Below, in pieces: positions 3,117 through 52,119 of a stretch of 64,000 nucleotides of DNA (within the stretch, counting starts at the first letter, position 1; every line of letters begins with the position of its first letter). The position numbers and the translations under genes are program-made. The notes beneath the pieces were generated by a model. The model was not told where the DNA came from, searched no databases, and was given only the letters and a program-made list of their open reading frames with translations. Source of the stretch: Owenia fusiformis (taxonomy: Eukaryota); contig CAIIXF020000001.1 of the NCBI GenBank assembly GCA_903813345.2, forward strand, positions 29,264,001 to 29,328,000. Reading direction: 5' to 3'.

Positions 3117-4130
3117 TTAAATTTTGAATCCATGATATATAAATTTTCCAATGTATAATTGAACATTCAAGTGTTCAGTAGCCATTAACCTTTTAAAAAT
3201 ATCTGGGTCATCACAATCAAAACTTGGAAAAATTTCTTTTAATTTCGAAAACAAACATTCTCTAAGAGTTACATATTTTTTACATCTTGTGAGAAAGTGT
3301 TCTTCATCTTCAATAGAATTACATGTTGAACATTTTCTCTCATTTAGAGGTTTAGGGGCAGGTTTACAATGCCTCCCAGTCTCAATATGCAACTGGTGTG
3401 AACTTAGTCTAAATCTTGCAATACAATGCCTATACTTTCTATTGTCTAACTTTAAATATGATTCACATTCAAATTTAGTTTTATATTTACAATATGTTCT
3501 AAGTATAGGTGCACACAAAATAGCATTTTGCCAATCGGCACGATACTGTCTCATCAAAGTGCTATTTACATCCTTTAAAAATATTTTCTCATCAGGTATT
3601 TCCTGATTGTCCCAGTATTCTAACATGTCACATTTTTCCAGTATTTTAAAAACTCTGGATGCCCATGAGGGAAACCCAAGATTGTGTAACTCAAGCTCAT
3701 ATTTATATGTTTCAGATAATATATTACTTGGGCATAGTCTCAGGAGTCTAATCCAATATTTTAATAGTTGTATTTCAAATTTTATATACAATGGATAACG
3801 GCCTAAATCACCATAAACTGCATGTGTTGATGTCTGAGGTTTTACACATAAAACAGATTTTAAAAACTTAAGATGGATTGTTTCAATTGTCTTCATTTGT
3901 TTATGATCTAGCCATATCTCAGAACCATAATTTAGAATCGGCAGAATAAGTGTATCGAACAAATGCAAAGCGATACTAACCGGGATATCATTAAATTTAT
4001 TGTATTGTTGTTTTATCTTGAAATAGGCTTTTCTTGCTTGTTCTTTCAAATGGTTGGAATTTTTATCAAACTTGTTATTATGACTTAAGACACAACCAAG
4101 ATATTTATATTCATTGACTTGTTCAATTGT
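3117..4130 (-). mobile_element. 5'-truncated non-LTR retrotransposon (LINE; RTE-X/CR1-like) ORF2 C-terminal region
   Basis: ORF 3117-4187 contains the end of the RT domain (IEQVNEYKYLG), LPILNYGSEIW, ARFRLSSHQLHIETGR and a C-terminal CCHC finger (CSTC...EDEEHFLTRC); no YADD core; AATAAA motifs on the minus strand near 2930-3000 mark the 3' UTR. Confidence 0.92.
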
Positions 4131-5532
4131 TATAAATATCCATTTTAAAATATGAACAATTTCATTATTTATTGATTTTAAAATCATAAAAATTCCATTA
4201 AAACTCTAATGGTTACAAGATGTAGATAATTCTCCAGCAGAGGAACTGAAAAAGACTTACTCCATTGGAATTCACTTCTATTCTATACCAGATTCCTCTA
4301 AGTACACCAAGTTAGCATTCGTATTATGATTTCTTGACCACATCACATGCTAACAACAGATTGAATGCCTGTTATCTTAAAGGGTCTAGTGGGCTTGACC
4401 AAATATTCGCTTATACATATATGTATAGGGGAAACTTCATCTATTTTTGATATGCAGCCAATATGTTGTTTGTGCAATAAATGGAGGAAAACAGGGGTGA
4501 GATAATGGACGCAGGATGGATGACCGGTTGCTGGACTATTAAAATAGATTTACCTTTTAAAAGTGTTATGATTTTGTTAATTATAAAACAACACAAAAGG
4601 CAATGTTTTAAGAACACAAAGCTGCATCACACTTTTATTTTACAATTTTCATGGGAATACATTTATAACCTACAGGCATAATTCTTTTTTTAAATAATTG
4701 ATAAAAACATATAAAATGTTAAATGTAAAGGTCATCAAAACCTATCAAATCTTCATCATATCACCGGGAAAAGAATGTAGTGAATTGTTGATTTTTTGAT
4801 GGTTTATCAACTTCTCGCGACATTTCAGAGAAGTGAATATATAGTGAAAGTGACTGGTATCTCTGGATTATACAAGGTCAAGGAGCTTTATCATATCAAC
4901 ATGCCACTACACATACACTTATGCCCAGTTGACCAATAGTTATAAACAGGTAAACAGTGCAAACCAAGTCCATCTGGCCTTTGCTCCCTTGTCTAGAGGG
5001 TCTATAGCTGATAGCACTATCGATAATATTATAGAAAATGTAAATATATATGATTAAGAGATGGTAACAGTAATACCATTGAACATAGAATAATTTATAC
5101 ATTCTACAGAACAAAACATGTTCTAACGACAAACAATTAATGTCGGTAGTGTATGCATTCCCAAAAATCTATGAAACTAAATATGCCAATTTCATGTAAA
5201 AATAAAATTCAGTTTTCAGGTTTAATGTTCGAGTAAAAATTAAATCAAGTTTTCAAGTTTGATATTTGCATTTTATAACTGATTTTACAAGATACGTTTG
5301 GTCTTTCCCCTTTTGCCACCTGAACTTATATATTTAATATAACCCGAATTATAATTATAAACAATAATTTCCTATTCAAGAGAAGGAAGAGTTTGAAAAT
5401 TTCAAGATTGTGAAATTTTCAATTTTTTCTGAAAATCGATTAAGTTAACAGTCACCTTAATGCAACAAGAAAAATATAAGGCATAGAAAAAATGTAACCC
5501 CCCTGCCAAGCTATTACAAATGGTTACAAAAG

Positions 5533-22500: not shown

Positions 22501-25500
22501 GACATTTGGCATGTTCTCACACTGTTTCTTCAACTGTGTGTAGTCCTTCATCAGATCCTTCATCGTTGGAGTCATCAAAGACAACTTTACTTTCATCTTT
22601 GTAAAGTTTGCATTGAGTGTTTCCATTTTTTGGTCTGCTTGTCTCTGGGCTCTCAGTACAGCTTCTTGTTTCTCCTGTTGACATCTATTGATCTCTGCTT
22701 CCATCTCTTGTTGGACTAACTGCATCTCTTTGCCATAGTCATCCAGCTGAAATGAAATTCAGAAAAATATCACTATTTAAGGCATTAACATGAAAATGTC
22801 AACCTCTGTCATTAGTTATAGATGTTGATGCCAAACATCAACCACCAAACACCAATTGCCATCCTCAAAAAGGTGGAGACTATAACAATATGTCAACACA
22901 TCTAGCAGTGCAGTGCAGTACAGTACAGTATACTCATTAAAAACATTATATTACTGAAAAAATGTAAGACAATAGATTCAAATATAGTCCAGGTTCCTCA
23001 GAACTTTCATATTGATAATAAAAAATTCTATAATGATTAAATATCTCAGATATTCAATAAAATATGTCAGAAGTCTCTTATTCTTACCTTTGTATTAAGC
23101 TTCTTCACCTCTCCTTGTTCATGGACTAACTTTGCCTGACTATTCTTATATAACTGTTGCAGTTCTGACAGTTCCCCTTGTAGCTTTGTGTTGTCCTGAA
23201 TGGACTTCTCCAGTGATATTCTGTCTTTCTTAGACTCCACCTCCACTCTCTCTATCTTGGTGACCACCTGCAAATAAATGCTTTATAATATGACAGGAAG
23301 CTTGGACTCTGGGGAGGGAACTTGAGGGGGGGGGGTGTGATGAGAGGTTCTGAACATCTCTATCTTTGTATTCATCTCTTCAATTAAGATTAGTTAGAAT
23401 CAAAAAATAATTAAATCACTGTGGAGGAAAGTAACAACTGTTATCAAATTTTGAACATCACCTTAACATTTTTTAAAAAACGCGTAAAAATAAATACTTG
23501 AAATAACTAAAACTGTTAAGCTATTACCAACATACCTCTGGTGGTTTAGCCTGTAATGTTGTCAACTCAACTCTCAATTGTCTTAGCTCCCTCTCTATCT
23601 TTGACTTTTCTTCTGAGACACCCTGTAACTTCCCATAATGCCTTGTCTCCGCCTGCTTTAGCTCTGTACATCTCGATTTTAGCTCAGATTCTAATCGGAA
23701 TATTTCTTTTTGCTGGTCATCGATCTTAGTTTCCAGTCGCTAAAAATAAAATATCTTGATATCTTTAATGATTATGAACAACTGAAATTACAGATAAAGT
23801 ACTATTTCTATTGGATTAAATCTTGATCCTCTTGTGCATGATGTTCTAGACTCAATTTCAAATTCAGAAAAAAAGTTTGCACAGCATTCATAGGATTATG
23901 ACTTTTTGGCAGAACATTCCTCATTTTGTATAAAAGGCTGTGCTGTTTGCTGGTATGTTTGTGAATTGGTATACAATAAAGAAAACAGAGTCCTCTGAAT
24001 TCCCGTGTTATTTGGAAAAATCATAGTCTAGACAGTAATTATTGTAATATTAAAATGTTTCATATGATTTTGAAGTTAATTAGTTATATTCTATGTTCTG
24101 CATAATTAATACTAAATGTTTGTATTTGACACAAAGTACATCATTTATCAATTAATGAATTAGAACTAAAACATATATTATATTACTTGTCAAAAAGTGA
24201 TTAATCATAGAAGTAGATTCAAAACTAGTTTATAATGTGTAAAACCTTTATCTGTGCAGTGTCTGTCTGTATCTCACGGATGACTTGAGGTTTTATATTC
24301 CTAGCTTCTCTGAGTTCTTGTTGTAATTGGTCAGTTTCTATCTCCAGCTTCTGTAGTTGTTTTTCAGTGTCAGTGGTCCCTGTGTTCTACAAACATAAAA
24401 CAATCCTGGTTAGTCGGGAAATTGATCATACCTATACTCATCATATATTTCTGTCTCCAAACTAGAACCTTATAGAAATTGACCAATAGAAGGTTGTGAT
24501 ATCTCGCAATGGATATCTATTCTATTCTTTTTATTTATTTCAAGATTTTGTACATAGAAGTGTTTACAATCTATGAAAAATACATCTCATAAGCCATATA
24601 GATTTCATGTTCTAAAACATAAAATATCATATAAGGATTGAACAGTCAGATTGAGTAGGTTCCACAGTGAACCTTTTTTCAAAGTGACAGTATGTATGAT
24701 TTTCCAAGGTTTTTATTTGAGATAACATGAAATTGATGGGGTATCAAAAGGGAAAGGACATTCTTAATCGAAACAATTTTACATTTCAAAGTACCTATCG
24801 GGGGCCCCATCATGGTTTAAAAGAAAAATCCTGCCATAAAAGTAATAAAAAAAATATAATGACATACATGTATACTGAGACAATTATCAAAAGTAAGTAG
24901 AGTTTACTACAACATACATATACAGATGAATATCGAAAACTTGGATTTATATTTTACAAAAGGTGCCTACTTGGACTCTTTTCAAACTTTATCAAAAAAC
25001 AACAATAAACTAGTGATTTTGATTATGTCATCAGACATTTTCTTGATTGAGCTATGGTTGATAATCATAACCAACCCACAGAGGTTCATAATTCTACAAA
25101 TTTATTTGTTTGTAAATAAGACCAAAACTCCCGATTCAAATTCTGTGAAAAAAAGGCAGCTGTTTGATTTTGAATTTTATAATCACGACCTGACTCCATA
25201 TGATAAAAATGGCAGCCATTTTGAAATTCAGCTTTCAAGATATCCTATTTGAATTCCTTAAAATAATATGGTTCTCAGTAGCCCTAATACATATGCGAGT
25301 TCGAGCTCTAGCAGAATCCATTTAAAATCCCTTATTCTTTATTTCAAATAATATTGGAGAAAACGTCTGTTTATTTTATGAAAAAGTCACAAAATTAACT
25401 TCCTGTCTACGTTTTAATTTCGTCCCATACAAACATAATCCATGGAGTTAGACATATAATAGCCTGACATCAATAAATACAACAAAAATATTCAGCATGG

Positions 25501-28500
25501 TATGTGTATAAAAGTTTACCGACGTTCCGCAGTTACAGATAAGATGAATTAGTCAACATCCAGATCAAAAGAGATATATTATCAAAACTACATTTTTCTA
25601 TAAAAAATGCTAGCCATTTTGAATTGAGCAGTCATATCGAAACTTACTTATGGAGCAGAAGTCTTACACCTATAAGGCGCACTTTGTTCAGTAGGATAAA
25701 AAATAATTTGAAGTAAATTCACTTAACCATGTTCAAATATCCAAATATCTATCAAATATTGACATTTTAATGATTAATTGCCATGCTTCTTTGGTGCTCA
25801 GGGTCAATAAATTTTAATTGGAGTTTAATAGCCTTTATACCCAGTATACAAAACAAATTACAGAACAAAAACCAATACTCCAACATACAATAACCAAAGA
25901 GAAGATGGCAAAGATTTTAGGATTATTTCTGTTCATATTGGGACTCACATTATGTGCTGGTGGAATAAAGAAAAAAATGGAATTGACTACTGATGGTAGG
26001 TTTAAGCTGATGAAAGTGATTGTATTACATTGCTTAAGATTAGGGTCCGATTATGCATCGGAGGAATTATGAAAATTTTAGAATTTGGTTTTCCTTGTTT
26101 GTAATAAAAGCTAAGACTTCCCTAGAAAAGTAGGATGACATAATATGATCAAATAGATCATCTTGGTACATAAGCCAGAATCCCAGTGACCCTATTACTC
26201 AGTTTGAATTGGACTCGGAAAACAGGTTATAATACAGGTTTTCTGCAAAGTTATGTAATTTTAAAAATATGGGTCTGGTTTTCGAGTGGTTTAACAAGCA
26301 TTTAGATACAATACTTGGCGCTATCTCTTGTCAAATACATGCAGACTTGCAATAAATTGGCTATTGCAAAATGCAAAATCAGATCTTCAAATAAATCGCT
26401 TCATATCTTCATCCAAAACTTTAGGATTCGAAAGATAAGTTATAACTTGTACAGGAAGAAATGGCAGATTCTACCTAAATTTAAAATCGTTGATTTCTCT
26501 GGACAAATTCCGAGAAGAAATTGTTCATCATCATGATCAGCTCAGACTATACATGTTGTGTGCATATCACTCTGAACTCGTGTGATAAAATATGACATCT
26601 TGATTGGTTACTACTTGTGTTGTCATGACGCGAAAGGCAGTAGTAAACACTGAACATGTTAATGAACTGCCATATATGGAACATTTGTCTCTCTGATTGG
26701 TTAACTATACACGGCTCCTGAATGAATATAGTAGTCATAGTAAATGATTGATTGATAACTATAGAAAGTGGGCGTGACCAGCTTTATTTTGACACTGAAT
26801 TCAAGATGTTTCAAATTAAAATAGCATCGCAACACGAGGTTGAAATATCGGCAATTTGATGGTGATATGGTCTACGGTAGATCAAAATTAACTGCCCCGC
26901 GGTATGTGACCCTATATTTGTTCAAAAATGAAAGTGATAGTGACAATTTTTAATCTTAATACCAATATTACAAACACATATCTATTTTTTGGCTATTAGA
27001 TCTTTAAATATCCTAGATATTCAATGATTACACTGGTCAATATCAGGCAAAGGTCCTCTTTCAAAATGGTAGATGCGAAGTGTCAATTTCAATAGTTTTA
27101 GTTTTTAGTTCATCACATTGAACCACTTTGCTGTGGACACTGGGAGTTGAAATTTCAACCATATCAAGTTATGTTTTTTTTAACTATAGAGATCAGCGCA
27201 TGTAACAGTGTCAAAGTGTTTTTGGATCTTATGTTCAACATGGACAACTGGAAGGAATTTTCCAAGAAATTTGCAGAGGATGCAATCTTAATACTGGATT
27301 CACGGGAGATAATTAAAGGAAGAAAAGGTTTTAGTATATTAATACCTATTTACAAAATCTATAGGGTGAGTCTTTGCACTATAGTTGTGCTGGCATACTT
27401 AAGATGCAAATATACATGTAATGAACAACCCCGCCAAGTTAAAATATCAACATGTATTTTCTAGTGGTGCAATAACAGTTGACTCTAAGGTCCATAATCG
27501 CAACTTGCTTTAGTCTGTTTTAAATCGCAATAGCCAACAATATTACAACTTATTTTAAATTAGATGTTTGAAAATTAATTTAAGACATCAAAAGATGCAT
27601 TTTTTGGTTGACTCTTGGCTCATTTTTTCTTTGTGACTTGCACAACTAGTATTTTCACAATACTTAATAATTAAGAAATATAGACCAAATAGCAGGGGTA
27701 ATATTGTCTAATACACCCCGCAGGGCTAGGCACAAACGTTTTCTGTACCCCGAATGACCGAAGGGAGTGAGGGTTTCGAAAGCTTTTGTGCCTAGCCCTA
27801 AGGGGTGTATTTAACGATAGTACCCCTGCTCTGAGGTCTATATTACGATTCGAACATGAAAACTCACCAAAATGTTTCGAATATTCATCATGGTCCGTCA
27901 TTACTACGACCCACCGTTATGACGTCACACATTACACGTATTACCAGGGGTATTGATCGCGAATATATCACGGGTTATTCTCATAACTCATTGAATCACA
28001 TAAATTATACTCATTAATTCTGACAATTTTGTACCAACTAAAATGTCACTTTAAAAAAATTTCAGCTATCTATAAGTATTTTTACCAAACTTATGGTGGT
28101 TTGGGATGGGAACAGATAACAACATCAAATGGGATCCTAGGTAACAAATTTTGTCCATACAAGTATGGTACAGTATCACTTCTCTTTGGATCTGGTGAAG
28201 AAGTCTCGAAACACAGGTAGGTTCTTAAAATGTATCTTTAATTAAGATTTATCAAACTTTATCAAACCATTCTGGTATGTTATCATAACACACATTGAAT
28301 ATTATATCATTTCATATGATGTGTTTAATCTGACAACACAAATCTAGGCAATATACCCAAGTTTCTTTAGAAAAGGAAAGAATTAGTGGAGAGGTCACAT
28401 GAGCTTTGTATAATTTTATAACAAATAACAGCATGTATTCTCCTGATACAAGGTATTTTAATAATAGATAGCTGTAATGTCTTACTTAGTACTTACACAT

Positions 28501-31500
28501 GTCTGTGTTTCATAACTGATAATTGGCTATGTGTTTTATTACTGATTTATAGCTGTGTTTTATTCAAGATACAGTACAAAATTGTACATGGCTGTGTTCA
28601 TCTTCCAGATACGTGTGTGTGTTTTCAAGAGTGAAGAAGGAAAAGTATGTAATAAGCATGATGATAACCAACAGAGATTATGAAGAAGAAGATTACGATT
28701 ATCGAAAATAGGCTTTTAACAGGCGCCATATGGTGGTGTAAGACAATCTCAAATTCATGAACTGTTTGAGAATAAGCAATGACGAAATAAAAAATTATGT
28801 TTAAAGCTTCATGATTTTTTCTCATTTTTAACCATTCTAAAATATATACAAGACATTAACATGACAAAATGTCACCACCTTAAATGGTTACTTAAGTGTA
28901 ACAATTGTAACAGATGAAGGTCAAGCAAAGGTCAAAGCTAGAGTCGGATTTGAACTTCTGAGAACTTGTAGATGATTTTGAAAAAGATTGTCAATTTGAA
29001 GCAAGATTAAAAGTACCTTTTTTGACCTTCAGTATGTTACCATGGTAACAGATGTTGGCAGAAATGTGTTACAACTCATTAGATGTTTAGATATATTTAC
29101 AATAAAATTTGAAGCCAGTCTTATATATTTTTTAAATTATTGGAAGTTGTAAAAATTTATTACAGGCTCTGCCGCCCACTGAACACGAACCACCATCCAC
29201 AAGAGTATAACAATAGCATAAGTATATTAAAGATCGTCACACATTTATAAAAGGGAGATTTTATTTTGACAAATCAATTTCACATTTATGGGTGAAGTTT
29301 CATGATCTTCTATTCACATCCAGTGATCGTACAAAATGGATGGAGGGGGGAGTGGGCAATTTCTGCAAGAAAACTCAACAAATTTCGAAGTTTTATTTTT
29401 TCAAGAGAAAATTTACAACTGAATTGCCAAATGAATAGGCACAGTGCATGGAAAAATATATAAGGTCTTCTAGCATTTTTTTTGAACTGATACGCTTCTA
29501 AGATGTGAGATCTAATAAAAAAGGCGCATAATCACTTACGTGCAAAAGTCAATGTTTTTGCTATAAATCAGGCAACAATGGTCTACTTGACGTGTGCTAT
29601 TTGTGTATAATAAGGAAAAAATGACATCTTAATTTCCCCATAACATTTTAGTACGCAGCTTGGCATATGAAATATACTCCAAATGAAACAAAGTAGTTGG
29701 TTCTAACACAAGTATTTATATTGGCTGTTGTATATGCATTCTTTGAACAAACACTCTTTTAATTAATGTTTTCAGAATCATTAAAAACAGATAACCTTAT
29801 CTCCAAGACATTTCAATAAACTTGATTTTACAAAACTCCCCTCCAAATATCTATCCAATAATCCTCAAAATATTGACATCTAATTATTAATCTTTAGTGC
29901 TCAGAGTCAATCAATATGTAATTGGAGTTTAATAGCCTTTATGTCAACATTTATGCAACAAGATATAAAACAAAAAATAATTACTTCAACACAATAACCA
30001 GACAGAAGATGGTGAAGATTTTAGACCTTCTCATTTTATCTTAAAATGTCCTCTGCTTGTAAACGAGCGTGAAACTTTATTTGCAGGACTGCGAACTTCA
30101 GATCTTCATCTTTTGGTTCAGAGTTGAGAGTTCAGCATGCATAAATACATGAGTCATTATCAGGCAAAGGTCCCTCTCTTTCAAAATGGTGTCCAGTAAT
30201 TAAGTGCCAATTTCAATAGTTTTAGTTTTCATCAAATTGAATCACTTTGCCTGTTTTTTTAAATGATAGATATCAGTGCAATTAACAATTGCAAAGTGTT
30301 TATGGATCTTATGTTCAACGAAGACAAAAGAGACACATGGAAGGAATTTTCGAAGAAATTTACAGAGGATGCAATCTTGATACTGGATTCACAGGAGATA
30401 ATTAAAGGAAGAAAAGGTATGAGTATTTAGTATTTACCAGATCTATAATGCAAGCCTTATTTGTACTACTATTGTGCTGGGATCCTGCATAGAAATTTTA
30501 AGTTTAAATACTTAACAAAATCACTTTCACAGAAACAACTGATATTTGAACCATTTCCTGATTAGTTTGTAATTCTAATGTGATTCTTATATGATTCAAT
30601 TGAAATTCATATTCCTCAGAACTGTTTCCAGATAGTGAAGATCTCCAATGATCATCATAACTCATATTGAATCACGTAAATTATGCTCATTATTCTCATA
30701 ACTCATTGAATCACATAAATTATGCTCATTATTCTAAAAACTCATTGAATCACATAAATAATGCTTATTATTCTCATAAATCATTGAATCACATAAATTA
30801 TGCTCATTATTCCCATAACCCGCTGGATCACATAAATTATGCTCATTATTCTCATAACTCATTGAATCACATTAATTATGCTCATTATTCTCATAACTCA
30901 TTGAATCACATAAATTATGCTTATTATTCTCATTACTCATTAAATCACATAAATTATGCTCATTATTCTCAAAACTCATTGAATCACATAAATTATGCTC
31001 ATTATTCTCATAACTCATTGAATCACATAGATTATGCTCATTATTCTCATAACTCATTGAATCACATAAATTATGCTTACTATTCTCATTACTCATTGAA
31101 TCACATAAATTATGCTTATTATTTTCATAATTCATTGAATCACATAAATTATGCTTATTATTCTCATAACTCATTGAATCACATAAATTATGCTCATTAT
31201 TCTCATAACTCATTGAATCACATAAATTATGCTCATATTTCTCATAACTCATTGAATCACATATAGTATGCTCATTATTCTCAGAACTCATTGAATCACT
31301 TAATTGTGCTCATTATTCTCATAACTCATTGAATCACATAAATTATATGCTCATTATTCTCATAACTCATTGAATCACATATAGTATGCTCATTATTCTG
31401 ACAATGTACAAACTGGAATGTAATTTCTATTTTCAAGTATTTTTAACTTTAATATCTTTTCAGCTATCTTCAAGTATTTTTACAACCTATGGTGGTTTGG

Positions 31501-34500
31501 GATGGGAACAGGTGACAACATCAAATGGTATCCTTGGTGATAAATTTACTCCATACATGCATGGTACATTAACACTTCTCTTTGGATCTGGTAAGGAAGT
31601 CTCGAAACACAGGTAGGTAAATCATTTCATCTGATGTACATTATGACAACATAAATCTAGCCAATGTACACTTGTTTCTTTAGAAAAGGAAGGAATTACT
31701 GGAAAAGTCACTTGACCTTAAACTTGAGCTATGTAAAATTTTTTGACACATGACAGCATGTATTATTTCTCACATAAGATTACATGTAATGTATATATGA
31801 ATGTATTTTAATACGTAACTGTAATGTCTTACTTAAACATGTCTGAGTTTCATAACTTATAATTGGCAGTGTTTTATTTCTGATTTATGGCTGTTTTATA
31901 TTATTCAAGATACATGTGCAAAATTGTACATATGTGTTTCTTTTTTCTTACAGATACGTGTGTGTGTTTTCAAGAGTGAAGAAGGAAAAGTATGAAATAA
32001 GCATGATGATGACCAACAGAGATTATGAAGAAGAAGATTACTACGATTATTGAAAATAGGCTTTCAACATTTCAATATGCTGTCGTGAGACATCTCAAAT
32101 TGATAAACCGTGAGACGAATGATGAAATAAAAATTGTTTTCAGAAATTCATGATTTTTGAGGTTTCTTATTTTTATCCATTCCACCTTATACAAAATCTG
32201 TTCTCACTTTTGAGTGGAAAGTAGTTAGTATATAAATATATTATTAAGCAATATTTTCCCCATGGTGTCTAAAACATATATTAAGAGAGAAGTATAATGT
32301 TGTCCTGGCCATCAAATTGTACCCAAATGGATCACAGTTTGGTTTGCCCTATTTAGTATTCATAGTTCCCAATTCTTGACACTTACATGTACTATATTGT
32401 TTCTTCAGCTAAATTTCACAGAATTTGAAACTTTTAAAACTGAAAACAAGAGGACAGAGTATTTGTTGAACATCTGTTGCTAAACCTAAAAATTACCCAC
32501 AGTAGAAAAAACATGCGAGTGTAGAAATAAGCCACATAGGAATGAAAAATGTTTGTACCTGCATGCTACCGAGTCTAACAACCTCTTCTTGAAGCTCCTT
32601 ATTCTCTGCCTCTAGTCGAGAAACTATGGACTTGAGGGTGTCCCCTGAAGCTGTAGGGCTGTCCTTAAAGTTTGCCAATTCATTCTGTGCATTTAGCAGC
32701 TGCCCCATGAAGTCTGCTTTCTCCTGTTGATGCTGTTTCAGCTGCTCTATCAGCTTAACTGTGCTTGAGATTGGTCGCCTGGACTCCTGGCTTGTATCAC
32801 CTGAGCCAAAATTGACTGCTTTTGAGATATACAATTTCTTGATTTCTTAATATCGGTACTTTTATATTTAAACTTTAAACACTGTTTTGAACTAAGAAGA
32901 ATAATTCAAATACACTTCAGAGCAAGGAATGTTCTAAAATTGCTGCTTCAAATCCCTTGATACAACATCTCTTAACAGTGAATACTGATCTCTATCCCTC
33001 AAGACCCCCTCCCTTTCAGGCAGCAGGATGCTATGCCCATGAAAAAGTACCTCACCCAGTTTAATTTAGGGAAAATCATAAAAAAACAGTCCTAATATAT
33101 CTTATTGTAAAGCTAACTTCTGAACCATGATAGAATCAATAGTTTTTTACCAATGAGCTCAGCCTCCAGTTGCATGATCTTAGCCTCCTGTTCCTGTATA
33201 ACATCTTCTAAATTGCTGATCAACAGCATTTTGTCCTGCAAGTGTGATTCATGTGTCTTCCGCATGATCTTAATCTGCTGTTTCTTGTTGGTCTCCTCCT
33301 TCTGTAATCTCGTCCTATATTGTTTGTTCTTATCGGACAGTGTCTGGAAATTTAGAGGTTTTGTAAAATGTTACATTGGAGAAATACAACTCTAAGGCAT
33401 TTAGAGATTTAAAAAGCATACACATTAAGGTTGCCAAGATTCAATTGATACTTTGATATTAAGATGATTTGATAAAAACAATTTCATTATATGTATAATT
33501 TAGTTTTATGTGTCTCTCTTATACTATAAATGCACATATAGAGAGCGTATATGATAACTTGTCAAACCTACTTTGATTCTAAAGAGAAGCTCATCCCTCT
33601 GTTGATTCCTTTCCTCCAGCTCCTTCTTCAATGACTGGTACTCTACTATAGAACAATTCCCTGCAAGTATAAAACAGCACAAGTGTTTTGTAGAATTATA
33701 TAATACAGGGTGGTCGGCATGATGACATCCACATACATCACTGTTGAAAAACAGTTAAACACTGTTTGAAACTTCTGTACATCCATGTTTCATGACAAAC
33801 ATCATCAATTTTGAATTTACATAAAAGATTGAGATTAACAAACTAATATCTAATGTAAGGTTACCCCTCTACCTATAGTTTATTGTCTTACATATTAATA
33901 TTGCTATCCTTAATTTTTCAATGATTTCATATGATTCATATCTACTTTATAATCTTAAAATCATTGCAAACGGAATCAAACTGAACCATAGTTGAGTTTA
34001 AAAACCCAAAAAATACTAGAGACATGGTCAATATTGCTGAAGTTAAAAATTTAAATCGATTTTTACATATATTTTCAGTAGAATTCTGCAGAAGATTGCA
34101 ACCAAGATTCTTCAGAACACCCTGTATTTGCAACATGTCCTTAGTTATTCTCTCACCTTCATCATTTTCTTTATCACTCTCCTCCTCTGATCCCGAGCTA
34201 GCTTCCTCCTCTTCTTCATCCTCGTCTGTAAGCAGAAGAGGAGAGAGATACAAATCATTATATAAATATATTTATTTTCAAAAATTTCTCATTTTGAAGA
34301 ACGATTCATAAATTTAATTGAATATTATAAGACATACTTTTGGACACTATTTCTAATACCAAGTAATACAAATATTCTTACAAAGATATGATCAGAGATA
34401 TTTCTGACTTTGTTTTCTAGTGGCCATTTTGAATTTTAAGGAGAACTCATAAATGACAGAATATTTGAGACCTATGCTGAATATGGACTTAACAATTATA

Positions 34501-36924: not shown

Positions 36925-38068
36925 CGTAAATCGGAGTGAATATTCTTGCACTTAGAAAAATGGGTCTCTCCGTTCTGATGAGTAGTTTTAATAAGCCTGT
37001 TTAGACATGTTTCCTTTCTTTACCTGAAAGTATAGAGCAGATGTTTAGATGATTATAACTTTATAAATTTTAAATGGTACAAAATTCAAAAAAATTACCC
37101 AAGAAAACTGTGTTACTCTTTCATAAAAGTATCAAACTTAACAAGTGTCTGACAGAATTGGCAACTTTTGGACTGGATTAAGTCTGACTACTATGGAAAA
37201 ATAGAGCTAATATAAAATAAAAAAAGAAAGAAAAAATAGAATTTAATTTATGTTTTATTTACCATAAAACAAAATTCCTAGGTTAAAAATCTATTTTTTC
37301 TCATTAATCATTTTTTTAAATCAAATATTAATTTTCATTGTTTTATTACACATAGTGCAATAAAATTCTTCCATGTGAGTTTTGAATAATTAATCCAATA
37401 GAATTGTAAATATAAATAGCACATGCAAAGCTCAGCATGTATAATACATTTACATGTACACTTAAAAATACACAAACTATGCAATATAAATCCATATTGG
37501 TATTTATTGGTTTTCAGCTTATGAGAGTTAAATGTAATATGTGAAAGGTTAAGTGTACTGCATTGAACTGTAGAGCGGGAAGCCATGATGATTGTACACA
37601 AAATGGAGGGAGAAAATAAGATACTGCCAAATATAAATTGGAGTTTTATTCTTAGTTTTAACTATGAATAAACAGTATTTCAACAATTATTTCATTTCCA
37701 GGTTCTAAGTGAAACTACAAGCTAAATGGAGATCAACTATTTTAGTATGAAAACACTGTATCATCTAGGATTTTTAGTACCATTGTGAAAGAATTTCAAT
37801 ACTTGTGGCTCAGCAACACAACCTTCTAGTTCTTCTTGATAAAGCATGGATGTATAGTCTAGTGACATTTTTTAAACAGGTTAATAGTTTAGACAACACG
37901 ATTTAGGAATGTACCAAAACACAAACATACAGAACTGTTTACTACGTCATTTATATTCATAGCAACTAAAAACATTACATCATTTGGAAATTAAAAAGTA
38001 ATAGGGACAATTTATAATACCGATACATTGCTACAGAACTATAATACAACGAAGTATTATATAACATT

Positions 38069-38584
38069 ATGTCTGCAGCCGCATCAAATGGGCCAGCAGC
38101 GGCTAATGACAATGATAACAATGAATATGCAGCAACATTTGACAAAGATAAATTTGAAAAGATGGAGCCGCGACAGCTCCATGATGAACTGAAACTATCG
38201 CATGCAAAGTTTTCCAGGGCATGTGACCAATTATTGCTGATCGATGATCGTGTAAAACAGATTGAAGTCCGATATCAAAGGGCTGTAAAACGTAAGAAGG
38301 AATCGTCACGATATGCTCAAAGACTGAATCTGTCCATTATGACTGGTTTAAAATGTGTGATGTATGAATATGCCATGCGGATGGCAGCCCAGGTTGAGGG
38401 AATCAGAAAAATAGCCGAAAAGTATTCTGATCTTGAAGATGATTATTTCTACACAGATGATGATGATTCAGACGAAGATGAATCAGATGATAACAATGAT
38501 GAGAGCCAAGACAATGATGAGAATAGTGACTCAAACAATGACAGTAATAACTCAAATAATGACCAACAAATGGACAGTTCATGA
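38069..38584 (+). CDS. Intronless uncharacterised 171-aa protein (helical/coiled-coil core, acidic D/N-rich tail)
   Basis: 516-nt ATG-initiated ORF with protein-like composition in very AT-rich DNA; AATAAA at about 38864; antisense to the presumed kinesin 5'UTR intron. Confidence 0.7.
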   Translation: MSAAASNGPAAANDNDNNEYAATFDKDKFEKMEPRQLHDELKLSHAKFSRACDQLLLIDDRVKQIEVRYQRAVKRKKESSRYAQRLNLSIMTGLKCVMYEYAMRMAAQVEGIRKIAEKYSDLEDDYFYTDDDDSDEDESDDNNDESQDNDENSDSNNDSNNSNNDQQMDSS

Positions 38585-42624: not shown

Positions 42625-44043
42625 AAACAAGGCATTAACATGACAAAATGTCACCACCTAGTTAGGTCATTGAAGGTCAAATGTCAAATCTTAAGTCAAA
42701 TCTTAAGTCAGATTTGAATTTCTGAGAACACGTAGATGATTTTGAAATTTTTTTTTAGACAATTTGAAGCAAGTTGAAAAAAGACCTTTTTGACCTTGAG
42801 AAGGTCATTGAAGGTCAAAGGTCAAATCTAAAGTCAGATTTGAACTTCTGAGAACTTGTAAAGTCAAATTTGAACGTCTGAAAAGATGTAGATGATTTTG
42901 AAAAAAAAATTTGGTCAATTTGAAGCAAGTTGAAAACAGACCTTTTTGACCTTTTTTGACCTTGAGAAGGTCATTAAAGGTCAAATGTCAAATCTAAAGT
43001 CAGATTTGAATTTCTAAGAACATGTAGATGATTTTGAAAAAAAAAATTAGTCAATTTGAAGCAAGTTGAAAAAAGACCTTTTTGACCTTTTTTGACCTTG
43101 AGAAGGTCATTGAAGGTCAAATGTCAAATCTAAAGTCATATTTGGATTTCTAAGAACATGTAGATGATTTTGAAAAAAAAATTTAGTCAATTTGAAGCAA
43201 GATGAAAAAATACCTTTTTGACCTTTTTTGACATTGAGAAGGTCATTGAAGGTCAAATGTCAAATCTAAAGTCAGATTTGAATTTCTGAGAACATGTAGA
43301 TGATTTTGAAAAAAAAATTTAGTCAATTTGAAGCAAGTTGAAAAAAGACCTTTTTGACCTTTTTTGACTTTGAGAAGGTCATTGAAGGTCAAATGTCAAA
43401 TCTTAAGTCAGATTTGAATTTCTGAGAACACGTAGATGATTTTGAAAAAAAATTTTAGTCAATTTGAAGCAAGTTGAAAACAGACCTTTTTGACCTTTTT
43501 TGACCTTGAGAAGGTCATTGAAGGTAAAATGTCAAATCTTAAGTCAGATTTGAATTTGTGAGAACACGTAGATGATTTTGAAAAAAAAATTTAGTCAATT
43601 TGAAGCAAGTTGAAAACAGACCTTTTTTGACCTTGAGAAGGTCATTAAAGGTCAAATGTCAAATCTAAAGTCAGATTTGAAGGTCAAATGTCAAATCTAA
43701 AGTCAAATCTAAAGTCAGATTTGAATTTCTGAGAACATGTAGATGATTTTGAAAAAAAATTTAGTCAATGTGAAGCAAGTTGAAAAAAGACCTTTTTGAC
43801 CTTGAGAAGGTCATTGAAGGTCAAATGTCAAATCTAAAGTCAGATTTGAACTTCTGAGAACATGTAGATGATTTAGAAAAAAATTGAAGTCAGTCTAAAC
43901 AGTATTTGTTAAGTTATAGGAAGTTGTAAGAAATTGTTACAGACGCCAACCGCCAGACGCCGGACGCCAACCTCCAACCGCCAACCGCCGTCAGAAAAAA
44001 ACGGAGACCATAACAATATGTCACCACTTTTGGTGGTGACATA
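42625..44043 (+). mobile_element. Helentron/HINE (pearl-like) non-autonomous element carrying about 9 tandem 136-bp monomers
   Basis: Left subterminal atgtcaccac (42648); monomer anchor gagaaggtca at 42798, 42964, 43100, 43236, 43372, 43508, 43635, 43804; short (cgccaac/cgccaga)n microsatellite at 43940-43990; 3' hairpin tatgtcaccac-ttttg-gtggtgacata at 44017-44043. Confidence 0.75.
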
Positions 44044-51100: not shown

Positions 51101-52119
51101 TGAAATATAATATAATTCAAACAACTTATTTTGTTTTGTTTACATATTCAAAAAATTATTCCATTACCAAAGTCACCTTGCTAATCAAAAAATAATTCTT
51201 AATAACTTATATGGGGTGATATTGTGCCCTTTAACCTGAGTTTTATACAGTACACAGTATGCATCACTTCCTTTTGCAGAACTTGACAACGTTTGATGAA
51301 TGGACCATAACTGTGATGCAGGTAGTTGTATTTGGACTGACAATCACCGAGTGGATGGCTAAATTACGTGAAGAACCATTCAGTTATAATCTCATCAGCG
51401 ACATGGGGACAGACTTCTTCACAGCATATGATATCATTGAGATGCTTATGGTGGCTGATCATAATAGAGATGTGTTCACCTCCCACTGGTTGTACATTAC
51501 ATATGGTGTGGGGTTCCTGGCATTTTTCAAATACGTTCCTATACCACCTGTTCATGTCTGCAGTAGTAGTGCTGCTGATGTCACCAAGAGGGGGACCGTC
51601 ATCTACATCTTGGTGAACATGTTCCTTCAGGATATCCCCTTTGTGGTGGTCAGGTTTACAATCATGGGGCTGTATGGGATGAAAGCCAGTGATTTCATCC
51701 ATCCAGTCAAAAATGTCGTCTTTGTTATGATATACATTTTTCAGCTTGTCCTTCTCTTCTCGAACAACAGAACCACTTCTGCCGCTGGAATATCCTTCCA
51801 AAGCCTCGTTTTAAAGGCCCAGTCAGTAAAGCGGAGAGAAAAGGACACAACGGCTGAAGAAAGATCAGCAAAATGCAATACACTTCCAGAAAACAACAAT
51901 ATAACTGTAGAATTGGATGCACTTGATAGGCACTTAGATGATGAACTAATGAAGTCTGGTGTTGAGAATACTGGATTTAAAAGCGATGATCTCCAAACAG
52001 AGGATTTAACAAACAGAACTGGTAGTTTACAACTGAAGGATTTACCAGGTAGTGTTGAAAATTCACAATTGCAGAAATTGCCAAACAGAAGTGCCTCAAT
52101 GCCAAGACCAGATTATTGA
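48137..52119 (+). CDS. Multi-pass membrane protein, TMEM26/TMEM121(CECR6)-like, about 402 aa, 3 coding exons
   Basis: Exons 48137-48429, 50315-50390, 51280-52119 (1209 nt, GT-AG, in phase); several hydrophobic helices; motifs W-RPSILLY..SVLP, TAYDIIE, FLQDIPFVVVR, KNVVFV recall TMEM26; hydrophilic C-terminal tail. Confidence 0.8.

Follow-up and report, generated by a model that had tools for sequence, protein, structure and literature searches.

A spliced gene nested in a kinesin intron of Owenia fusiformis encodes a probable divergent and secreted member of a DUF4440-type protein family

Introduction

DUF4440 occurs in animals as a small stand-alone domain, and the papers that report it, cited here and below from part of their text, give no function for the proteins concerned. 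In heat-treated Anisakis larvae, the DUF4440 protein A0A0M3J349 ranked third in abundance (PMC7407331). R102.1 of C. elegans and LOC101164525 of medaka were named as DUF4440 homologs (PMC7465371), and another DUF4440 protein was recovered from Parascaris vesicles (PMC11468347). In a sponge skeleton proteome, the domain is fused to an Ig domain (PMC4633127). This study concerns copy A, a gene for a small stand-alone protein of this kind. It lies in a 64,000-nucleotide (nt) stretch of the annelid Owenia fusiformis (GenBank assembly GCA_903813345.2, contig CAIIXF020000001.1, positions 29,264,001 to 29,328,000, forward strand), hereafter the window, which is numbered from its first letter.

The available text of PMC7407331, PMC7465371 and PMC11468347 describes no signal-peptide branch of the animal DUF4440 proteins. 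The Anisakis protein, at 13.7 kDa, has the size of a cytosolic paralog of copy A, P0002, and any homology to copy A would be putative. The promoter of C. elegans F09E10.7 is active in PDE and CEP neurons (PMC10743456); a possible link of this gene to DUF4440 comes from one table column in PMC7465371. A nematode-specific NTF2-like family has also been mentioned (PMC2666764). The closest secreted case described is C. elegans SFP-1 (F56D2.8), a protein of 133 amino acids (aa) with a signal peptide and a stand-alone NTF2-like domain; it is a male seminal protein that acts on SKN-1 after uptake (PMC12669617). Since SFP-1 is secreted, it provides a precedent for secretion of the NTF2-like fold in animals. 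Copy A likewise encodes a small protein with a predicted signal peptide and a stand-alone NTF2-like domain, but it is longer (160 aa) and belongs to a multigene branch, and the two are compared here by architecture. In literature searches, mostly of open-access text without supplements, a secreted DUF4440-type family in annelids was not described.

Results

Gene structure and splicing

Copy A is a real, spliced gene that lies antisense within a kinesin intron. Its four exons (Table 1) are separated by GT/AG introns in phases 1, 1 and 2, and they join into 483 nt encoding 160 aa with zero internal stops. Four of the ten listed sequencing runs, none of which is catalogued as RNA, were examined, and splicing was evident in two of them, from separate studies. 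Contigs of run X2 (study P1) span 25995/27190, 27327/28066 and 28216/28609, all with GT..AG ends, and a contig of run X7 (study P3) spans 27327/28066. In runs X1 and X6 the contigs continue through the introns, which is DNA-like behaviour. An earlier note on the window had proposed this four-exon nested gene, and the spliced contigs show that it is real.

The host intron is also real, because an X2 contig joins 24386 to 32559 with CT..AC ends, as for a junction on the minus strand. It is the largest of the five host introns listed for 22.4-34.4 kb, in agreement with the placement given in the note. The motor exons of the host match Pfam Kinesin and Microtub_bd and lie at the 3' end of the gene, which we take to be a kinesin-14 from this C-terminal motor and from a neck motif. 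The public database holds an unnamed protein of O. fusiformis, flagged partial (NCBI; here P0001), that is 100% identical to copy A over exon 3. Its exon 1 is read in another frame and the hydrophobic N-terminus is absent; this exon 1 was rejected because contigs link 25995 to 27190.

Table 1. Features of copies A and B and of the host intron (window positions).
Feature	Position	Strand	Remarks
Host intron, C-terminal-motor kinesin gene	24387..32558	-	8172 nt; holds copies A and B antisense
Upstream/5' untranslated region block of copy A	25738..25920	+	75% to copy B 29852-30024
Copy A exon 1	25905..25995	+	start codon, signal peptide (predicted), short basic linker; junction in X2
Copy A exon 2	27190..27327	+	NTF2-like fold (predicted): helices 1-2, then first beta hairpin
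Copy A exon 3	28066..28216	+	helix 3 and central strands (predicted); least conserved portion
Copy A exon 4	28609..28711	+	last hairpin (predicted), acidic Tyr-containing tail, stop
Candidate poly(A) signal AATAAA, copy A	28786..28791	+	
Copy B exon 1 remnant	30009..30044	+	departs from A past codon 5; codon 12 is a stop; lacks a splice donor
Copy B exon 2	30270..30416	+	open, 3 codons longer than that of A; spliced contigs in X2, X7
39-bp tandem array, 19 copies	30655..31399	.	copy B intron 2
Copy B exon 3	31464..31612	+	2 bases shorter than that of A: frameshift in assembly
Copy B exon 4 including stop	31954..32053	+	AATAAA at 32126

A paralog family with shared introns

A DUF4440 search of the genome returned two weak matches, both of which proved to be real genes, and a search with PF13474 found nothing. 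Chained single-protein searches then led to at least 19 loci on eight contigs, which is a lower bound given this type of search. A profile of eight paralogs built without copy A gives it 23.0 bits, whereas the highest-scoring of 2000 shuffles reaches 7.7; with 13 paralogs the values are 34.3 and 11.7 (again 2000 shuffles). Copy A reaches 36.2 bits against a profile of five signal-peptide paralogs (shuffles 6.9) and 16.9 bits against one of eight cytosolic paralogs (shuffles 7.6). As a chance control, 2071 six-frame segments of the window were compared with a family profile built without A and its neighbouring second copy, B. Exon 2 of copy B ranked first and exon 2 of copy A second (14.4 and 11.4 bits); the next segment scored 5.6.

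Intron positions are shared as well. A phase-1 intron closes exon 2 after G-[RKLHN]-x in 18 of the 18 loci examined (after G-[RK]-x in copy A); locus C6c was left out of this count, its exon being frameshifted. A phase-2 intron precedes the last hairpin in all five paralogs that were read without assuming a phase. Eight more exon sets were located by searching for those very phases and lend no independent support for intron 3. On these sequence comparisons, copy A very probably belongs to a DUF4440-derived gene family of this genome. The earlier note had presented it as the best candidate for an undescribed system. Neither this nor a lone gene is supported, given 19 or more paralogous loci that have intron sites in common, a cytosolic DUF4440 gene among them, and given that DUF4440 is known in nematodes, a fish and a sponge and that the secreted stand-alone SFP-1 has been described.

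The cytosolic gene is P0002, a conventional DUF4440 paralog of 125 aa without a signal peptide. It passes the Pfam cut-offs for DUF4440 (46.6 vs 25.2) and SnoaL_2 (52.3 vs 27) and matches PDB 3HX8 with an expectation value (E) of 1.9e-12, as well as the designed vitamin-D3 binders CDL2. Its rank 3 in the ESM Atlas is a 90-member cluster, 96% eukaryote and mostly nematode, and an exact-pattern search of GTDB contigs found no relative of it.

The introns shared across divergent paralogs on eight contigs point to an old animal family and long vertical descent rather than recent import. Every Atlas neighbour listed for P0001 is a bacterial cluster, which might suggest a recent import at the copy A locus alone by horizontal transfer from bacteria, but the Atlas itself cautions that its taxa do not indicate transfer. 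A phmmer search of 1.84 billion representative proteins returned only P0001 itself, with no bacterial or other match, and the G+C content at third codon positions of copy A (0.37) is not raised relative to the host exons (0.49). Together with the common introns, these results make such an import extremely improbable.

In a tree of 14 three-exon loci, the six signal-bearing loci stand apart from the eight others with support of 96/96. The tree omits B, C3c, C6b, C6c and C8c, which are incomplete or broken. Alignment A3 was discarded, as it placed exon-3 fragments on exon 2, and alignment A4 still misaligns exon 3 of P0002. In one secreted subgroup, the ratio of nonsynonymous to synonymous rates (dN/dS) is 0.71-1.50 in six pairs, none of them different from neutral; the ratio is 0.33 for C6a/C6b (p 0.013, 45 codons). 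One cytosolic pair is saturated at synonymous sites, with a nonsynonymous difference (pN) of 0.32. Copy B, broken in the assembly, and the frameshifted C6c are signs of fast turnover. Two groups of loci were seen besides. Four near-identical secreted paralogs lie on three contigs (L051, L052, L053 and L054 of genome G000, on C8, C1, C3 and C8); their similar intron ends suggest recent duplication at the DNA level, and their dN/dS is near 1. Three signal-peptide paralogs (L043, L044 and L055) form a tandem cluster on C6 at 20.11-20.13 Mb, one of them frameshifted in exon 2.

Predicted secretion

The N-terminus of copy A resembles a signal peptide, as had been claimed from the letters of the window. 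A Lys in the n-region is accompanied by 18 uncharged residues (4-21; hydropathy 2.5) with small residues at -3/-1, and cleavage is likely after residue 18-20. Judged from these features, the product is likely to be secreted. In a heuristic scan that left out copy B, 9 of 18 family loci had a phase-1 first exon of hydrophobic character 0.1-1.2 kb upstream; at one of the negative loci the upstream sequence was scanned for only 385 nt, but the exon there begins with Met.

The mature chain of 141 aa would contain 11 Tyr, 23 Lys+Arg and 20 Asp+Glu, and among family members only A and B carry the acidic tail. O. fusiformis builds tubes. This composition, a tail confined to A and B and the DUF4440 domain of the sponge skeleton proteome (PMC4633127) would suit a component of tube cement or mucus, in which the fold would provide a stable scaffold and the charged tail, with its Tyr residues, the adhesive. 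The chain has a predicted globular fold and shows neither the repeats nor the low-complexity blocks that characterise cement proteins, and we consider this role very unlikely.

Predicted fold

Copy A is predicted to adopt an NTF2-like fold of the YybH/DUF4440 type. The ESM Atlas model of P0001 (predicted template modelling score 0.65) shows the cone of three helices on a curved antiparallel sheet, and its template modelling score (TM) to NTF2-clan clusters is 0.73-0.79 over 126-139 residues. All ten clusters listed are YybH/DUF4440/SnoaL, the ten best named matches fall in one clan, and the Atlas feature score is 0.94. Copy A thus shares the predicted fold (TM up to 0.79) and the motif layout of YybH-type DUF4440 (PF14534) and SnoaL_2 (PF12680) proteins such as PDB 3HX8, of which its intron-sharing paralog P0002 is a clear member. 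It differs from them in falling under the Pfam cut-offs and in having a signal exon and an acidic tail.

No close relative was found outside this genome, and the note's view of the protein as uncharacterised is supported. Besides phmmer, word-indexed homolog searches (with exon 3, residues 25-140 of P0001 and the C4 exon) returned only this genome's own proteins, a Pfam scan of the single exons of copy A gave no match, and NCBIfam and a PDB phmmer search gave nothing useful. CD81 rows at E 0.3-0.6 in the latter were dismissed as chance. The AlphaFold2 model made with 28 alignment rows is confident only for its N-terminal half; the top Foldseek rows are ketosteroid isomerases over about 41 columns, and NTF2-type folds dominate the VIA-align list. 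These comparisons weakly agree with the Atlas and add little; they are partly circular, with DUF4440 paralogs in the alignment.

Catalytic columns

Ketosteroid isomerase, MonBI/BII and Lsd19 are bacterial, cytosolic enzymes, and the catalytic residues of ketosteroid isomerase include Tyr16, the general base Asp40 and Asp103. Profiles of the O. fusiformis family match ketosteroid isomerases, MonBI/BII, the orange carotenoid protein and designed binders; for the N-terminal profile, E against ketosteroid isomerases and MonBI/BII is about 1e-5 to 1e-7. The predicted fold and this profile match are shared, whereas the Tyr and general-base Asp columns are not kept in copy A. Leu66 occupies the general-base column, which is hydrophobic or Pro across the family with no acid, and Phe41/Leu42 occupy the Tyr16 column. 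Over the strand of the Asp103 equivalent, neither the alignment nor the model is reliable. The Glu-Asp-Pro acid motif of MonB and Lsd19 after strand 1 is absent, the family profile having a deletion and hydrophobic or Pro residues in its place. Among the well-conserved columns, copy A retains mainly structural residues, e.g. Asn47, Asp61 and Gly74. Missing from it are the beta-1 motif residues Tyr and Pro-Pro and, in the last strand, the conserved Trp, all kept by cytosolic members.

That the secreted protein is an enzyme, an isomerase, cyclase or epoxide hydrolase with a lipid or secondary metabolite as substrate, could be proposed from the profile matches and from Asp67, which A and B retain one residue off the catalytic column and which the paralogs lack. 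In view of the substitutions at both catalytic columns of copy A, the lack of an acid at the general-base column in the other paralogs, and the mainly structural nature of what is conserved, this is decidedly unlikely. The earlier note had left the choice between a ligand-binding protein and an enzyme; the enzyme is disfavoured by these columns and the binder is favoured, at about even chances.

A second copy in the same intron

The kinesin intron holds a further copy, B, which the earlier note does not mention; it is situated downstream of copy A, at about 29850-32130 on the plus strand. Contigs of X2 and X7 link an A-like exon 1 to exon 2 of copy B and onward to its exon 3. Two gap letters are the only difference between the X7 contig and the assembled exon 3. 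Copy B is broken in the assembly and may be intact and expressed in other individuals, or may be mis-assembled here. The dN/dS between A and B is 0.50. The 39-bp array in copy B expanded from a unit that is also present in intron 2 of copy A (single unit, 27975-28021). One X7 joint, 28212/31950, connects exon 3 of A to a B-type exon 4 and may reflect an allele, gene conversion or alternative splicing with another last exon.

The contigs also reveal a further, more divergent A-like form. Among the differences listed, six in exon 1 alter five codons, all non-synonymously, and a further 235 exist. This rapid change, the tandem duplication and loss, and an architecture of signal peptide plus NTF2-like domain like that of SFP-1 (PMC12669617) would fit a secreted effector in reproduction or defence, shed with gametes or mucus and acting on a protein partner. 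Such a role is rather unlikely. The likeness to SFP-1 is one of architecture, and the exon-1 variants sit in the signal and linker and may derive from a further paralog.

Other features of the window

A self-complementary repeat resembling a miniature inverted-repeat transposable element lies at 27677-27844, and contig depth in the bin that contains it is very high. A dispersed repeat at 28848-29165 and 42.6-43.9 kb is shared with a 136-bp tandem array (six copies, 42859-43681). On the plus strand, a 179-aa open frame with an acidic tail (38045-38584) lies antisense to the region upstream of the kinesin and has no Pfam match above cut-off, and a 294-aa frame (51235-52119) has weak TMEM121/TMEM26 similarity (E 6.7e-5, below cut-off). 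On the minus strand, a 362-aa frame (3117-4205) has no Pfam match and resembles the 3' part of a long interspersed element, and Laminin G and EGF exons at 56.7-63.9 kb belong to what we take to be a perlecan-like C-terminus.

Discussion

The product of copy A may be secreted and may bind small hydrophobic molecules without catalysis, a reading to which we give even chances. Its history would begin with an old, intron-bearing animal gene family, one branch of which gained a signal-peptide exon. That branch would be duplicating, diverging and dying fast in O. fusiformis, and one member would have landed in the kinesin intron and duplicated there. After cleavage, the protein of about 140 aa most likely folds into a cone-shaped NTF2 pocket, which would bind or carry, outside the cell and without catalysis, a small hydrophobic molecule such as a sterol, lipid, pigment or chemical cue. 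It has been argued that NTF2-like domains with enzymatic activity are mostly intracellular, whereas extracellular ones are probably non-catalytic ligand binders (PMC3924330).

Several observations weigh against this proposal. Regarding the family, copy A is only 11-20% identical to its paralogs and forms a long branch in the tree, and the split between secreted and cytosolic members drops to 77/88 with 11 rows, after removal of near-copies and one long branch. Regarding the fold, the earlier note had suggested checks with Pfam, AlphaFold and Foldseek, and these came out divided: the Atlas returned the expected fold, but P0001 misses the Pfam cut-offs (best SnoaL_4, 12.8 bits vs 24, E 0.12) and Foldseek with the AlphaFold2 model gave no match at E<=0.001. 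That model has a predicted local distance difference test score (pLDDT) of 40 from the single sequence and 50 with 28 rows; residues 77-115 of P0001 fall below 50, and the model is too poor to show a pocket. The best VIA-align hit is weak (Z 4.8, root-mean-square deviation 3.4, 82 aligned). The heuristic that called the signal peptides also yielded distant false candidates. The neutral-looking dN/dS values may reflect decay instead of diversification, and the value for A and B is indistinguishable from neutral (p 0.11). Finally, Asp67 lies close to the catalytic column, and the described secreted case, SFP-1, reportedly acts on a protein partner.

The nesting is probably incidental, because the other members of the family are located elsewhere. 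Genes nested in others are common, and they are typically short, young duplicates inserted into long introns (PMC5174743, PMC3814207). If the branch as a whole does carry ligands, it could be an annelid counterpart of the odorant-binding proteins and lipocalins: extracellular carriers on the NTF2 fold, subject to birth and death, each tuned to hydrophobic cues of settlement, spawning or feeding. Such carriers would have arisen when a cytosolic DUF4440 gene gained a signal exon, and nematode SFP-1 may represent a parallel case. We regard this extension as speculative and unlikely.

In sum, the first interpretation of this locus is partly supported: copy A is a divergent variant, predicted to be secreted, within a family that is known but has no described function. 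The fold, the nesting and the secretion of an NTF2-like protein are not new in kind; what is new is a branch of several genes whose products are apparently secreted. An apparent orphan thereby joins a previously unnoticed family of about 19 genes, of which half seem to encode secreted proteins, and the public gene model in which the signal peptide was hidden is corrected. Small, secreted and diverging, these paralogs may offer a practical entry to the ligands of animal DUF4440 proteins, which can be very abundant.

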